From NCBI GenBank assembly GCA_964342815.1, contig CAYFHS010000020.1, positions 16,580 to 37,793 on the forward strand: 21,214 nucleotides of DNA, in the 5' to 3' direction. The position numbers and the translations under genes are program-made. The stretch is from an uncultured archaeon. Its GTDB lineage: Archaea > Thermoplasmatota > Penumbrarchaeia > JASLWR01. A model generated the notes under the pieces. That model did no database searches, was not told the DNA's origin, and worked only from the letters and a program-made list of their open reading frames with translations. Every line of letters begins with the position of its first letter. The stretch's first letter is position 1. Of the stretch, positions 11,295 to 16,122 are shown piece by piece.

Positions 11295-14200
11295 TTACAA
11301 CATGGTCTTGCAATTGGGGCAGATGAACCAACCTGGTTTAGTTTCACTGCCGCACCCAGGACATTTCTTACCAGGGGTTCCCGCTTGCTGAGGAACCGAT
11401 TGAGTTGTTGGAGAAGTAACCGGTCGGGTCACCGGTTGAGTTGTTGGAGCAGTAACCGGTCGTGTTACCGGTTGAGTTGTTGGAGCAGTAACCGGTCGTG
11501 TTACCGGTTGAGTTGTTGGAGCAGTAACCGGTCGGATCACCGGTTGTGTTGTAGGCGAAACTGGACGGGTTACCGGTTGAGTAACAGGGGAGGTGAGAGG
11601 TTTGATAACCGGTTGTGTTACCGGTGCCGTTGTGGGTGGGCTTGTGGTCACGGGACTCGTAAAGGGTCTTGACACGGGTTGGCTAGTGGTGACCTGTGTA
11701 GAGGGTGGTTGTGTTACAGGGGCTGCCGTGGGATGGGTCGGTGGCGCTTTAATGGGTTGCGCAGGTTGAGAGTAGGAAGGGCCCGGGGTGGCTTGAGGGG
11801 CGCCGTACCCCTGTGCCACCGAAGAATAGTAACCCTGACCGCCAGGAGAATAGTCCTGTTTCCCCACACCACCTGCTACGTACATAACGTTATCCTTTGA
11901 CTGTCCTTCGATCTCTGCCAGCGATTTTATTTTTTTCTTTTCCTGTATTACGGTCTTCCTTTTTGCCACTTCACTCCTTTTCGCTATCTTGTTCTTCACT
12001 TTGGTGTTCTTCTTGATCATCAGGAATATCATTACCCCAAATATTAATATCAGAGCAATGAACAGAATGTCCCCCTGGGAGAAGATTTCAAAAGGAAGGT
12101 TATAATCGAAAAACCAACCTTTTTCTTCCGGTGGCGGAGGTACATATATTATCTTTATTATGATCTCATTATCCACAGTGGTCCCGCTTGTATAACCGCG
12201 GTCGTCCTTTACCTTCAGTTCAACTTTGTACTCGTGATAATCATCGCCATCATCGACCTTGAAATCTGCGAATGAATAGGTCTTTTTGAGTCCGGCGTCC
12301 ACGTTATCCAATTCTTTTTTATCAGCCATGTCAGTTACGATCCAATAGTAATTGGTTATCACAACCCCTGCATCGGGAACATTTGATCCGCTGGCATCAA
12401 AAAATATCTCCATTATGTTATTCTCATCTTCTTTCTCAATTATGTATTTTCCTTCTCCTTCGTCCCAGAAATCCCCCAGGTCGATCCCATCAATTTTTGA
12501 AATCACTGCCTTGGGATTCGATTCCAGATATATCGTTATCGGTATTGTGTGAATTTCGAAGTGATCGCTGTCTGATGTATTAAGGCTGAGAGTTCCTCTG
12601 CTGTCTCCAATGTCCACGGACATTATGTAATCCCCAACCTGGAAAAGGCTGTATCTCAAGTCCCAGTTTACCGTCCAGGTTCTGTTATCCCGGTCAATGA
12701 TCGTATTTTTCGAATCCGAGATCAGCGGTTCGGTTACCGTTTTACCGGCCTCCGAAGGGACCAATCTCACCCATACATTTCCGGGTGTGATGCTGTCTTC
12801 ATCGATATCGAAGAAGCTGCCCTCCAATACAATTCTCTTTTCTTTGATGGGAGGAAGTGTGATAGTTATTCCATCATCGCTGTCGACCTCCTCACCATCG
12901 ATCTTCATTATCATGCCGTATGGAGGATTATTGACACTGCCCTGTTTGATCATGGGGGTAATATTGGTTTCAGTTGTGAATCCGTGGCCCTCGAATGCGG
13001 CAAATCTCAACAGTATCTCTTCATTGTCGTAAAAATAATTGATTTTCGTTTTATCGCCTGTTCCCGACTTGGATTTGGAAGCAGTTTCGAACCTGTAACT
13101 CCAGCTGCTCCAGCTCCTTTCGGATCCGCTGCTTATATCATCAACCTCAATTTCACCAGCCCCGTCCACTGAAACCACTATCTTTGTTATTTCCTGAGTG
13201 CTGCTGAATATCTGCGCAGTTCCGTTTATGTAGATTATTCCACCCAGGGCCTGATTCCCATTAATAACGTCATTTTTGTTTACGTGTACCTGCTCGTCAT
13301 CACCAACGAGTACGCTTCTGTAGGAAATCGAGGATATGCCGAGTGTTAGTATCTTGAGTATCATGGCGGCCTTATTGTCAGGGACTCCAATGTGAGGATC
13401 CTCTACCAGATTTAAACTTTGGGTTAAAGGAACCTGTTTCTCAGCCTTATAGGTGTGTTTCATGGCATGTATTCTCACAGTCAGGTCTTTGCCAAGGTTA
13501 TTACCTTTTATTGTTCTTGATAATATACCTTCGAAAAACGCATAACCGTACTGATTCGTATCAGCGCTTGAAAGCATCTCCCACACGTCGCTATCGTCCT
13601 TTGCTCTGATCTCCACTTCCGCCCCTTGAATTCCTGCTTTAGTATGGTCATCCACCACCTTCACCAATATGTCCCAGTATACTTCTATCACGGATTCAAT
13701 GATGCTGTAGGGCCTTACGGGACCCTCCCTGTCGGATATTGAAACGTTATCCAGAATATTTGTATTGGCTGGACAGTCGATACCGAATGAATCTGCCGAT
13801 GTCCGTATTGTGGAATCCGATCCTTCTATGGAGTTATACAGTGCCTTTAATCTAAGTTTGTCTCCACCGAAATAACCGTCCATGTTCCGATCGCCCCCCA
13901 GGCCCAGGTCTCCGCCAAGAGAATAAATGAAACAATGGTCGAATGTAACGGACGTGTAAGCGGAGATCCTGATATTGGACTCTCCACCCCATCCTCCTTT
14001 ACCGTATAACTCATCACCGCTGGTTCTGGATGCGTCTCCCCCTCCACCGGCCATGGCGATAAAATCAGAGTTTCTCAAGGTTATGGAGCCTTTCGATTCT
14101 ATTGTCACAATACCCTTGCCGCCGACTCCACCGTCACCGCCTTTGGCATTGGAAATAGTCGGTGCTCTTTCACCCCCCTCTCCTCCGTCGCCACCACTTG

Positions 14201-14930
14201 CTTTTAGGATGCAGTCATCAGTAATATCGACTTTGGCGGATTCGATATATATCTCCGCTTCCCCACCTTTTCCTCCGTGCCCGCCATTCATTTTCTTATC
14301 GTCAATTCCAGCAGCCCCCGTTCCGCCTGTCTTTCCATAGCAGTATATCTCTGAGTTCTTGATATTAACTGGTTGGGTTGTGATTATTTCAACCACTGAA
14401 TCATTACCCGGTCTACCGTCGAGTTTCGCGCCTGTACTGCCAGGTTGTCCGGCTTCTCCCCCGGTAACGTTTACCACGGTAATTGTGGAGTCTTCCATTC
14501 TAAACTCCTTGCACCTTGCCGAGAAATTCCCCTTTTCGATATATATTTCGCTACCCATCAATATATGAATTGTTCCTCTATCGGATATGTTGAATTCTCC
14601 CTGATGTCCGTCCTCCCCCTGGGACAAATTAAGCTTACAACCCTGCAGTATCAATGATGCGTCTTCCTGTACCCATATGCCTGTATAGTCGCCGGAATCG
14701 GTAAATCCCAGGGTTTTCTGGGTACCTTTATCCACCTGTAGATATCCATGATTTGTTCCATTTGCCCTTTGATCTTCTATGGGATTATTATCGGTTTCAG
14801 CCTTGAGCGTCTTGGCTTCTTCCCCTGCCTTATGATCGGGCGTTATTGATATATTTCCTACAACCGTTAATTGGAATATTAAAAATCCGATAATCAATAT
14901 AGAAAAAATTGAACGCAATCGTTTTTTCAT
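11295..14930 (-). CDS. Large single-pass membrane protein: signal peptide, Gly-rich solenoid repeats, Ig-like/PKD-like domains, TM helix, Pro/Thr tandem repeat, C-terminal Zn ribbon; alternative start 14954
   Basis: GGTGA 5 nt before ATG 14930 (ATG 14954 overlaps the upstream stop as TAATG). Five GGxGGxGG-type blocks; VKVVD...GAEVEI...TNQYGYA beta-sandwich motif; TM ILFIALILIFGVMIFLMI; terminal CPGC-x10-CPNC. Confidence 0.85.
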   Translation of the reverse strand: MKKRLRSIFSILIIGFLIFQLTVVGNISITPDHKAGEEAKTLKAETDNNPIEDQRANGTNHGYLQVDKGTQKTLGFTDSGDYTGIWVQEDASLILQGCKLNLSQGEDGHQGEFNISDRGTIHILMGSEIYIEKGNFSARCKEFRMEDSTITVVNVTGGEAGQPGSTGAKLDGRPGNDSVVEIITTQPVNIKNSEIYCYGKTGGTGAAGIDDKKMNGGHGGKGGEAEIYIESAKVDITDDCILKASGGDGGEGGERAPTISNAKGGDGGVGGKGIVTIESKGSITLRNSDFIAMAGGGGDASRTSGDELYGKGGWGGESNIRISAYTSVTFDHCFIYSLGGDLGLGGDRNMDGYFGGDKLRLKALYNSIEGSDSTIRTSADSFGIDCPANTNILDNVSISDREGPVRPYSIIESVIEVYWDILVKVVDDHTKAGIQGAEVEIRAKDDSDVWEMLSSADTNQYGYAFFEGILSRTIKGNNLGKDLTVRIHAMKHTYKAEKQVPLTQSLNLVEDPHIGVPDNKAAMILKILTLGISSISYRSVLVGDDEQVHVNKNDVINGNQALGGIIYINGTAQIFSSTQEITKIVVSVDGAGEIEVDDISSGSERSWSSWSYRFETASKSKSGTGDKTKINYFYDNEEILLRFAAFEGHGFTTETNITPMIKQGSVNNPPYGMIMKIDGEEVDSDDGITITLPPIKEKRIVLEGSFFDIDEDSITPGNVWVRLVPSEAGKTVTEPLISDSKNTIIDRDNRTWTVNWDLRYSLFQVGDYIMSVDIGDSRGTLSLNTSDSDHFEIHTIPITIYLESNPKAVISKIDGIDLGDFWDEGEGKYIIEKEDENNIMEIFFDASGSNVPDAGVVITNYYWIVTDMADKKELDNVDAGLKKTYSFADFKVDDGDDYHEYKVELKVKDDRGYTSGTTVDNEIIIKIIYVPPPPEEKGWFFDYNLPFEIFSQGDILFIALILIFGVMIFLMIKKNTKVKNKIAKRSEVAKRKTVIQEKKKIKSLAEIEGQSKDNVMYVAGGVGKQDYSPGGQGYYSSVAQGYGAPQATPGPSYSQPAQPIKAPPTHPTAAPVTQPPSTQVTTSQPVSRPFTSPVTTSPPTTAPVTQPVIKPLTSPVTQPVTRPVSPTTQPVIRPVTAPTTQPVTRPVTAPTTQPVTRPVTAPTTQPVTRPVTSPTTQSVPQQAGTPGKKCPGCGSETKPGWFICPNCKTML
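11400..11543 (-). repeat. 36-bp coding tandem repeat (PVTRPVTAPTTQ), 4 near-identical units with degenerate copies to about 11620
   Basis: Units at 11400, 11436, 11472 and 11508 (+ strand TTGAGTTGTTGGAGCAGTAACCGGTCGTGTTACCGG), contiguous with no spacers. Confidence 0.95.
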
Positions 14931-14953
14931 ATTTTCACCTTTTACGAATTTCA

Positions 14954-15352
14954 TTAGTAGTCCGAGAGAAGTTTTCCTCCCGCCAGATCGAATTTCTTGC
15001 TTTTGAGCTTATCGAGATTCTGGTGATGGAGGTACCCGAAACCGCCCCAACCCAGTAACATCACCAAGGCTACAATCATGAAAACGATGGCAGTATTTAC
15101 GAAAAGTGCTAGGAACAGACCTGTTAAAAGCGTTATCGACGCTAGAAGAAAGGAGATATTCCTTATAAAAATCTCATTTTTGATGTCATCTTCCAGGTTG
15201 AAAATCTGGGCCCTTCTCATGAAATCCGTTTCCTCTTTATCCTCCTCGGCTGATGTCTTGCTGCCGCAGTAACGACAGTTAACCTCCGCCTCACCCAGGC
15301 TTTCAATAAGCTTCCCACAATTAGAACATTTGATAAGAGTAGTCTGTGCCAT
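14954..15352 (-). CDS. Small Zn-ribbon membrane protein (CSNC...CRYC plus two TM helices)
   Basis: Start moved from 15397 to 15352 (MAQTTLIKCSNCGK) because a TATA-like box lies at 15381-15388. Two hydrophobic segments in the C-terminal half; stop abuts the large membrane gene. Confidence 0.8.
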   Translation of the reverse strand: MAQTTLIKCSNCGKLIESLGEAEVNCRYCGSKTSAEEDKEETDFMRRAQIFNLEDDIKNEIFIRNISFLLASITLLTGLFLALFVNTAIVFMIVALVMLLGWGGFGYLHHQNLDKLKSKKFDLAGGKLLSDY

Positions 15353-15380
15353 TGTAATCCCCCGCCAAATTGTATTAATA

Positions 15381-15388
15381 TTATTTAA
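15381..15388 (-). promoter_or_regulatory. Putative BRE/TATA promoter for the Zn-ribbon gene cluster
   Basis: Minus strand GGAAAAC-TTAAATAA, 29 nt before ATG 15352, consistent with a nearly leaderless transcript. Confidence 0.55.
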
Positions 15389-15555
15389 GTTTTCCATGAA
15401 AGATATTTATGTATGACTAGACTATTTAATTCCCCAATTGCATAAAACGATGCCAACCGTGGTCCATGTGGATGGTACGGCACGACCGCAAACTGTGAAC
15501 CGGAGAACGAATGAAAGATACTGGCGTCTAATCTCAAAATTTGAGGAGATTACCG

Positions 15556-15982
15556 GTAAAGACTGGAACAAAGTGACTGTCTTCTTGGTAAAGACGTGCC
15601 CGCTTTGCTCCGCAACACTCTAAAGTGTTGCTGCGACTATCGGGTGGTTGCCCGATAGTCATGTGCAATACCCATGCTATTGCTGCACTCTCGGCAAGTA
15701 TGCCTACGGGTGACATAGAAACAGTTTCTATTAACCCTAATAGAATCTCCGATTCTATGTCGGGTGCCAGAATGGGTCGGCTTTACACGTAAAGTCAGGA
15801 ACATTTGGACTTACTTCTTGGTAAAGGTGTCCCGTACCGGGCCCTATTACTTGTTCAGCCAAGCCCATAGGTCTTGGCTTCTCAAGTAAGATGTGCCAGA
15901 ATGGATCGGCTTTACACGTAAAGTCAGGAACATTTGGACTGACTTCTTGGTAAAGTTGAGCCAGAATGGATCGGCTTTACAC
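15556..15982. mobile_element. Non-coding insertion of three head-to-tail units (15556-15788, 15789-15917, 15918-15982) with shared ends and variable structured cargo; family unknown
   Basis: Removing it restores ATT ACC GGA GTT CCT (ITGVP) in frame. Each unit is GTAAAG-N26-GTAAAG + cargo + G(T/A)GCCAGAATGG(A/G)TCGG-CTTTAC-AC. No target duplication beyond a single ambiguous G. Confidence 0.75.
15764..15955 (+). repeat. Two 63-bp direct repeats (15764-15826 and 15893-15955) that are right-end/left-end junctions, with half copies at 15556-15593 and 15958-15982
   Basis: The two full copies are 61/63 identical and centred on the inverted repeat CTTTAC-AC-GTAAAG. Confidence 0.95.
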
Positions 15983-16122
15983 GAGTTCCTTTTGTTTTAA
16001 ATACCTCATTCAACGTCCGTGGCGAACCAATAGTCAACCGACCTGAAGAGGCTGTAAGGTGTTTTTTAAAAACAGGGATGGATTGAGTTGCTATTGGAAA
16101 TTTCTTGCTGAAAAAAAGTTAA

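Follow-up and report, generated by a model that had tools for sequence, protein, structure and literature searches.

Arrays of small hairpin-ended repeats inserted at sequences resembling their own junction in two genera of Thermoplasmatota

How do several small repeats, alike at their ends and unequal inside, come to lie head to tail within a dead archaeal gene, and by what kind of enzyme might they have been placed there? The question is raised by positions 15556-15982 of a 21,214-nucleotide stretch of DNA (hereafter the window, meaning the whole stretch that was analysed) located on contig C20 of the metagenome-assembled genome (MAG) of an uncultured marine archaeon of the Thermoplasmatota (GenBank assembly GCA_964342815.1, contig CAYFHS010000020.1). 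This source genome (G000) amounts to 4.35 Mb with 45% G+C, is 88.9% complete and breaks at repeats. The locus consists of three head-to-tail units of 233, 129 and 65 bp and is a real array, neither a product of chance nor an artefact. Its units belong to a family that expanded not long ago in two genera only distantly related to each other, and that a sister species lacks.

Direct reading of the letters and a repeat finder gave the same register for the three units. Each starts with a 38-bp left end (L; GTAAAG-N26-GTAAAG) and finishes with a 25-bp right end (R; G[T/A]GCCAGAATGG[G/A]TCGG-CTTTAC-AC), the two being separated by 170, 66 or 2 bp. Unit 1 (15556-15788, plus strand) comprises L1 (15556-15593), an interior of 170 bp termed cargo B (15594-15763) and R1 (15764-15788). 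Unit 2 (15789-15917, plus strand) comprises L2 (15789-15826), the 66-bp cargo A (15827-15892) and R2 (15893-15917), and unit 3 (15918-15982, plus strand) is a minimal element of 65 bp made of 38 bp of L, 2 bp and 25 bp of R, which scores 88.9 bits against the family covariance model (model R1). Where two units meet they form CTTTAC-AC-GTAAAG, a 14-bp pseudo-palindrome present at 15781-15794 and again at 15910-15923, which the insertion flanks imitate. The ends are not uniform within the array: L2 and L3 differ at a single position, L1 and L3 share 19 of 26 internal positions, R1 has GGGTC where R2 and R3 have GGATC, and R3 begins with GAGCC instead of GTGCC. Different pairings of L subtype, cargo and R subtype are met again as single copies elsewhere in the genome, and the L-B-R composite of unit 1 was found again on contigs C13, C14 and C18; the array was thus assembled from different family members and not by local duplication. 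The first-pass annotation, made from the letters of the window only, had described this three-unit anatomy and had judged that it was no simple tandem duplication, and both statements hold. The order of the units within the array is that of the MAG assembly alone; public contigs extend over the two outer junctions only and end within the repeats.

The array is located exactly between a Gly and a Val codon of a carbamoyltransferase gene remnant. On either side of it lies one half of the gene's last 69 codons, namely a left part at 15438-15555 (plus strand; ...VHVDGTARPQTV...EEITG) and a right part at 15983-16086 (plus strand; (G) and 33 residues, with the stop codon at 16084-16086). Once joined, they read in frame from EEITG into the following 18 residues and match Pfam Carbam_trans_C with an E-value of 2e-28. 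In a genome of the same genus, G001, the orthologue of 579 amino acids (aa) is intact and offers an empty site, with GAG ATC ACC GGC GTT CCA at the insertion point. The array was inserted between ACCG and GAGTT and no base was gained or lost, one G being ambiguous at the borders, such that the ends can be read as GTAAAG...CACAC or as TAAAG...CACACG. The in-frame flanks and the uninterrupted orthologue at the same codon confirm the precise insertion without target duplication that had been claimed from the window, and provide the empty site that had been suggested as a check. In the source genome the remainder of the carbamoyltransferase gene is gone, leaving the array in a dead remnant. A second empty site was sought at an intergenic locus on C6, where the intergenic DNA of G001 is too diverged for alignment.

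The array borders of the source genome (34 left and 39 right) obey a clear rule, their flanks reading c-T-T-t-a-C-A-n^G-t-a-A-A-g (^ marks the insertion point). Independently, the flanks of 32 borders in G003, a genome of another genus in the same family (record 'uncultured archaeon SRP077602_co2_347'), read TTT(T/A)C-AN^G(T/A)NA. The target consensus is therefore the element's own end-to-start junction, CTTTAC-AC^GTAAAG, and in the window its left half is given by the last bases of the left carbamoyltransferase part, GATTAC-CG. The two nucleotides before the left insertion point are variable and so belong to the target, whereas AC follows CTTTAC at the right end in 35 of 39 cases and so belongs to the element. 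A cut directly after TTAC, as in IS608, was rejected, since it would put Thr-Arg where Thr-Gly is conserved at the window site and would demand a constant first dinucleotide, contrary to the variable left NN and constant right AC that are observed. The spaced motif TTTAC-N2-GTAAA occurs 46 times in the genome, compared to 1-12 times for other spacings, but this enrichment is due to the unit junctions alone; unoccupied copies stay at background level, and the idea of a pre-existing genomic palindrome serving as target was rejected for this reason. A tail-to-tail pair on C9 is informative, as an inverted unit is there inserted between the CTTTAC and the AC of its neighbour. This pair obeys the target rule read on the opposite strand with the cut shifted by 2 nucleotides (nt), a shift that a strand-specific cut predicts and a fixed duplex crossover does not. 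Every copy thus carries a perfect target at either border, and in this way different members accumulate head to tail. An element whose end-to-start junction is its own target is an unusually clean natural example of the kind, and provides a simple rule for array growth.

Further copies of the ends, for which the first-pass annotation had proposed to search, are numerous in the source genome. The R end occurs 61 times, allowing up to 3 mismatches, at 38 places, compared to 0 for a reversed control pattern, which excludes chance as the origin of the units. All 38 loci are intergenic or in a pseudogene and none interrupts an intact gene; many are situated at contig ends. Assembled arrays hold 2-4 units, and an exact 65-bp period was found on at least a dozen contigs. 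The commonest form is the empty one of 65 bp, which makes up 37 of the 50 scored L-R pairs, the remainder carrying cargo A (about 66 bp) or cargo B (about 60 or about 175 bp). Among these 50 pairs none encloses more than 178 bp or an open reading frame (ORF), and no pair exceeds 300 bp. The view that independent members of a dispersed, non-coding and non-autonomous mobile family were piled up at one site, the third being an empty minimal form, is thus well founded, as is the statement that no mobilising enzyme is encoded near the array; the longer L...R copies enclosing an ORF that had been proposed as a check were not found in this genome. In contigs of the source sample, k-mer depth rises from the flanks to the unit by a factor of about 80-140, a ratio that according to the tool is not a copy number but which suggests that arrays were collapsed in assembly. 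With respect to the genes beside them, the copies have no preferred orientation (16:11 upstream, 13:14 downstream). The TAA within GTAAAG, on either strand, terminates an ORF at least 80 codons long at 7 of the 72 array borders, as seen at C13:30434 (minus strand) and at array ends on C17, C8, C4, C11, C3 and C56, one of these ORFs having 2082 codons. GTAG repeats of the REP type (repetitive extragenic palindromes) likewise supply TAG stop codons to neighbouring genes (PMC3733652).

The 65-bp unit is composed of two hairpin modules of about 32 bp each. The first, H1, has a stem of the type AAG-TCAG / CTGA-CTT or AAG-ACGG / CCGT-CTT, and the second, H2, is formed by GTAAAG and 4 nt facing 4 nt and CTTTAC, followed by AC. 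In unit 3, folding places the H1 stem at 15921-15927 with 15939-15945 and the H2 stem at 15950-15959 with 15971-15980 (both plus strand), the terminal AC being at 15981-15982. In 20 distinct minimal units drawn from G000 and G003, 90% of the cells form pairs, compared to 22-43% with slid partners, and four base pairs have changed on both sides. The closing pair of H2, between the second and third boxes, changes from G:C to T:A in G003, where some subfamilies have the entire interior of H2 replaced with pairing kept. Cells with G.T are 26 and those with A.C are 3, wobbles being almost confined to one strand, and unit 3 folds better on the plus strand (-12.8 kcal/mol, compared to -8.7 for the other strand; z -4.7). 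Covariation, the 26:3 skew of wobbles and the better folding of the plus strand together establish that one strand, here the plus strand, is the selected and folded form. Unit 1, of which L1 carries an H1 of the ACGG/CCGT type with one T.T mismatch and cargo B forms several nested hairpin modules, reaches -51.3 kcal/mol as single-stranded DNA (z -7.9). An Rfam search of the window and of the G003 cargo yielded chance-level matches or none; together with the missing orientation bias, this argues against an RNA gene.

The distribution of the family among relatives is patchy. The covariance model matched 75 times in G000 and 66 times in G003, once and marginally in G001 and never in a fourth genome, G002; it had zero matches in 33 other genomes of the class and in a sample of 150 further genomes of the phylum. 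Genome, metagenome, viral, phage and plasmid collections returned G003 only, and otherwise chance matches in coding genes. Units of G000 and G003 are about 89% identical (a hand count on two aligned units), whereas the coding DNA of the two hosts is about 64% identical and XerA 44%, and one subfamily is represented in G003 by at least 10 identical solo copies. The patchy distribution, the identity between units and the identical copies in G003 point to recent activity, and the family has probably spread laterally.

Which enzyme could move such units? We favour, with a probability of roughly one half, a non-autonomous single-strand element moved by an enzyme of the HUH/Y1 type, a kind of transposase that the first-pass annotation had listed among those to look for. 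A small enzyme of this type, supplied in trans, would bind the H1 and H2 hairpins and would cut out and paste the element as single-stranded DNA, while the AAAG or GTAAAG situated 5' of each hairpin foot would pair with TTAC or CTTTAC at the cut region and in the target. On the plus strand the cut of a unit is predicted between CTTTACAC and G, the joint of tandem units then reading CTTTACAC-GTAAAG. The reading is based on shared traits, namely precision without duplication, single-strand hairpins, a target retained on the left and a very small size. In IS608, the cleavage site is TTAC and the guide AAAG lies immediately 5' of the hairpin foot (PMC3201880; PMC5934647), and TTAC and AAAG occupy the corresponding places in the unit.

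An IS200-type element of 751 bp, encoding a TnpA of 169 aa (Pfam Y1_Tnp) and no tnpB, is present in G003 (locus L062:1259-2009, on C1 of that genome) and in G001 (loci L063 and L061). It inserts 3' of CTTTAC, ends in GTTTAC and has AACG 5' of both hairpins, so a CTTTAC target code is in use within this archaeal family. Copies of Y1_Tnp (PF01797) number one in G003, and two full and two partial in G001.

Several observations nonetheless weigh against an enzyme of the HUH/Y1 type. The hairpins of the IS200-type element (CCAGNNNC-TTTA-GNNNCTGG) bear no relation to H1 or H2; nor does its presence track the family, G001 having IS200 but essentially no elements. The source genome gave no match to Y1_Tnp (PF01797) in a MAG that is incomplete and breaks at repeats; neither the DNA nor the protein of the relatives' IS200 was found there by BLAST, a weak tblastn match on C5 being judged due to chance, and none of the four genomes G000-G003 yielded a TnpB. 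Besides, the insertion point lies 2 nt 3' of TTAC, unlike the IS608 cut directly after TTAC, and the right flank is conserved as strongly as the left, whereas the IS608 mechanism predicts conservation only up to position +1. Finally, GTAAAG and CTTTAC are plain Watson-Crick partners that lengthen H2, while the pairing of guide and cleavage site in IS608 is non-canonical.

Conservative site-specific recombination by a tyrosine (Xer- or integron-like) or other recombinase, acting on a target like CTTTAC-NN-GTAAAG, is a rather unlikely alternative. The element would offer its site as a duplex or as a folded strand, the stacked H1 and H2 of a unit circle rebuilding the 14-bp site as a dumbbell, comparable to the duplex mimicry of CTX phage and attC, and regeneration of the site on both sides would yield arrays, as for integrative mobile elements exploiting Xer (IMEX) at dif. 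The two-sided pseudo-palindromic target found in two genomes agrees with such a process, as do the insertion with no base gained or lost, the formation of arrays, the strand-specific folding and the XerA-type and other tyrosine recombinases encoded in all four genomes. However, the arms stand 2 bp apart, where tyrosine recombinases need 6-8 bp; serine recombinases would fit a 2-bp core but require identical core dinucleotides, and the left NN is variable. Nor does a fixed duplex crossover point account for the shifted insertion on C9, and the order of the boxes, GTAAAG 5' and CTTTAC 3' of the hairpin, is opposite to that of attC, whose GTTRRRY core is missing. Comparison of the four genomes revealed no recombinase exclusive to the two that bear the family, and no tyrosine recombinase common to G000 and G003 alone. 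A derivative of an IS607-type element was sought and rejected, as the serine recombinases encountered are an ordinary invertase and a gene conserved in all four genomes. The former lies on C76 beside a ParB-like gene, where an 11-nt match to the R end falls in coding sequence and was judged due to chance; the latter encodes 266 aa with an N-terminal resolvase domain (C40:3716-4516, or L087:1444-2244), has orthologues in G001-G003 and has no element ends beside it. Also rejected was an IS110 derivative, for which the only match in G000 was on C110, a contig of 1579 bp almost entirely occupied by an IS110-type transposase gene; being GC-rich, unlike the rest of the 45% G+C MAG, C110 is probably a contaminant of the bin. 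For IS91, no Y2_Tnp match was obtained in G000, the control genomes of the same search being silent as well.

These searches bear equally on the possibility that the units are moved by an enzyme which is either of a kind never yet connected with transposition or has diverged beyond the reach of current profiles; the resemblance to Y1 systems would then be convergent. We regard this as doubtful but not negligible. Y1, TnpB and IS91 enzymes were not found in G000, the lone IS110-type match is on a probably foreign contig, no longer L..R copy encloses an ORF, and the 2-nt offset and the two-sided target fit no described family exactly. It may be added that SMR-A of Haloquadratum, with its terminal inverted repeats, absence of duplication and strong target preference, was also called 'enigmatic' (PMC3119063). 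With a similarly guarded expectation, one may think of a single-strand, junction-mimicking and 'self-targeting' transposition by an undescribed enzyme, without Y1, TnpB, IS110, IS91 or integron-type enzymes, in which both target flanks would be read, possibly by pairing with the GTAAAG and CTTTAC boxes, and the cut would be made 2 nt 3' of CTTTAC. Against an enzyme of a new kind, the argument is one from absence in two incomplete MAGs, and every positive feature is shared with HUH-type systems. Less probable still, the units might be mainly functional host elements, structured RNAs or REP-like protein-binding DNA hairpins, whose arrays would arise by slippage or unequal exchange. In favour of such a role, the structure is preserved through compensatory changes and wobbles compatible with G.U, the units are much better conserved than host genes, all copies are intergenic, and a few provide the TAA stop of a neighbouring gene, as REPs do (PMC3733652). 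A host function is however at odds with the lack of orientation bias and of any Rfam match, with the absence of the family from the sister species and nearly all relatives, and with arrays such as the one in the window, which lies inside a dead gene and holds different subtypes that recur solo elsewhere. That units were merely collapsed or mis-joined in assembly is scarcely credible: many copies do lie where contigs end, and public contigs are interrupted within the repeats, but independent contigs of the source sample span each outer junction at the depth of the flanks, and equivalent arrays were encountered at many loci as well as in a second genome, which other workers had assembled.

Returning to the HUH/Y1-type reading, its nearest relatives are, in our best reading, the palindrome-associated transposable elements (PATEs) of Haloquadratum, including their 52-bp forms, and the bacterial REP and their assemblies, the bacterial interspersed mosaic elements (BIME). 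The first-pass annotation had presented the array as a candidate new element, a framing that does not stand as stated, since several of the features seen (ends that form hairpins on one strand, the lack of a terminal duplication, a short target kept at the left side, the placement of AAAG and TTAC, loss of the core) are those of IS200/IS605-derived PATEs and of REP/BIME. This kind of hairpin mini-transposon is already known, and what is new is a two-sided target that imitates the junction, arrays that run regularly head to tail, and the lack of any parent element. PATEs of Haloquadratum walsbyi are archaeal, have near-terminal palindromes and no target duplication, occur in 52-bp forms with termini only, undergo core deletion mediated by repeats, and keep their mobility despite tnpA genes reduced to pseudogenes (PMC3119063). 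Similarly, the present units are non-coding, 65-233 bp long in the window and devoid of any ORF, carry one-strand hairpins near both ends, insert with neither duplication nor loss of target, have a conserved terminal oligonucleotide, insert into other elements, have, in some short forms, probably been reduced to fused ends by core deletion, and seem mobilised without an obvious intact tnpA. A TTAC-like oligonucleotide is found 5' of the left end in both G000 and G003, 2 nt from the junction, the right flank being conserved to the same degree. Unlike PATEs, whose palindromes match resident IS605-type transposons, they have no parent element here, the hairpins of the IS200 in G001 and G003 being different; they have in addition 6-bp terminal inverted repeats, a two-sided target that mimics the junction, a host among the Thermoplasmatota and not among haloarchaea, and regular head-to-tail arrays, which are not described for PATEs (PMC3119063). 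Terminal inverted repeats and a strong target preference are shared with SMR-A.

REPs have a conserved tetranucleotide 5' of the hairpin foot and are cleaved at its complement, and they form tandem BIME-2 arrays (PMC3333891). As in these bacterial repeats (PMC3333891; PMC3733652; PMC2817692), imperfect hairpins of about 30-35 nt with a foot motif complementary to the cut region are present in high copy number outside genes, in tandem arrays of varying unit number, with G.T pairs in the stems and occasional stop codons; the 38 loci and their tandem clusters follow this distribution. The motif is however GTAAAG (GTGAAG in G003) and not GTAG or CGTC, and the arrays are head-to-tail pairs of two different hairpins and not alternating REP and inverted REP (iREP). 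As for an equivalent of the REP-associated tyrosine transposase (RAYT) within a REPtron, no Y1 gene was found in G000, and the regions between inverted pairs of elements (C16, C18) contain ordinary genes and no transposase-like gene. With IS608 and the IS200/IS605 group, the units share precise insertion without duplication, one active strand, subterminal hairpins, a left-retained target and the TTAC and AAAG motifs; they differ from IS608 by an insertion point 2 nt beyond TTAC, a conserved right flank, a right end that is itself a target sequence and hence gives arrays, and the absence of tnpA and tnpB inside the element, none being found in G000 either. In a survey of Archaea, only the IS200-type Y1 subclass was reported (PMC6006769).

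Other systems are more remote. IMEX at dif (CTX, TLC and VGJ phages) also regenerate a usable site, stack head to tail and can use a folded single strand as substrate, but they are phage genomes relying on XerCD and a 28-bp dif with a 6-bp core, unlike 65-bp units with dozens of pseudo-sites and a 2-bp centre. Integron attC sites resemble the units by their folded single-strand hairpins, by short inverted core sites as paired ends and by precise insertion at G; an integron cassette array was nevertheless rejected, as the core is GTAAAG/CTTTAC and not GTTRRRY, the order around the hairpin is reversed, no ORF or gene lies between the sites and the copies are dispersed rather than gathered at one platform. 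A CRISPR was rejected because whole units repeat and their interiors are 2 bp or shared repeat modules, and a miniature inverted-repeat element mobilised by a DDE enzyme because the 6-bp inverted termini come without duplication, the left NN differing from the right AC. The anatomy therefore agrees with the first-pass annotation, which had set the array apart from CRISPR, attC and duplication-forming miniature elements. We found no published description of such elements in Thermoplasmatota, and the REP literature consulted reports no archaeal REPs. Should the single-strand reading be true, biology of the REP/BIME and PATE kinds would extend to Thermoplasmatota; should no HUH enzyme exist, the element would point to a transposition enzyme not yet described. 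The 65-bp unit, with its well-defined fold and sharp cut site, is close to the smallest mobile DNA known. On a practical level, such repeats break the MAG assemblies of this lineage and mimic 'ornate RNAs'.

The interiors of the longer units had been seen as a variable structured cargo, which suggested a payload; they proved instead to be other nested repeat modules and never ORFs. Cargo A is present in 9 near-identical copies, each within an L..R frame, and consists of hairpin modules similar to R-type ends in inverted orientation. In cargo B, modules resembling three-way junctions follow one another; they are also found without an L..R frame, in G000 (C1) and in G001, and they fill the long elements of G003. 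Segments that are absent from shorter forms are bordered by direct repeats of 5-7 bp (GTGCC, TTGCTGC, CGGGTG), and some short units are therefore probably deletion products between short direct repeats.

Cargo B belongs to a distinct family, whose tandem modules measure about 60 nt and have an outer stem CCCG/CGGG around two hairpins, as well as single-stranded joints that are conserved, such as CGCTTTGCTCC and TGAGCCCTCGG; it has no Rfam match. Its modules were found in three genera with apparent compensatory changes (e.g., GGCA..TGCC versus GGGA..TCCC), at C1:86100-86520 (minus strand) in G000, at L043:2790-3060 in G001, in the cargo of L039, L041 and L060 in G003, and at 15594-15763 of the window. 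A sibling repeat family often adjoins the arrays and reads, on one strand, GACAAG-hairpin ... GGTGA-GCCAG[A/T]ATGGG-TCACC-TTTAC-NN. It has the same H2 loop and TTTAC end, lacks the GTAAAG partner and is present in 9-19 copies, among others at C9:92960-93015, C16:42380-42640 and C11:87798-87858 of the source genome. As for the genes next to the array, the carbamoyltransferase remnant, in a region (15380-16090 of the window) that was compared with L043 on C149 of G001, adjoins an ORF of 147 aa at 14954-15397 (minus strand) without Pfam match. Beyond it, on the minus strand at 11295-14954, lies an ORF of 1219 aa that matches no Pfam family at E-values up to 0.001 and is conserved in G001 with 74% DNA identity.

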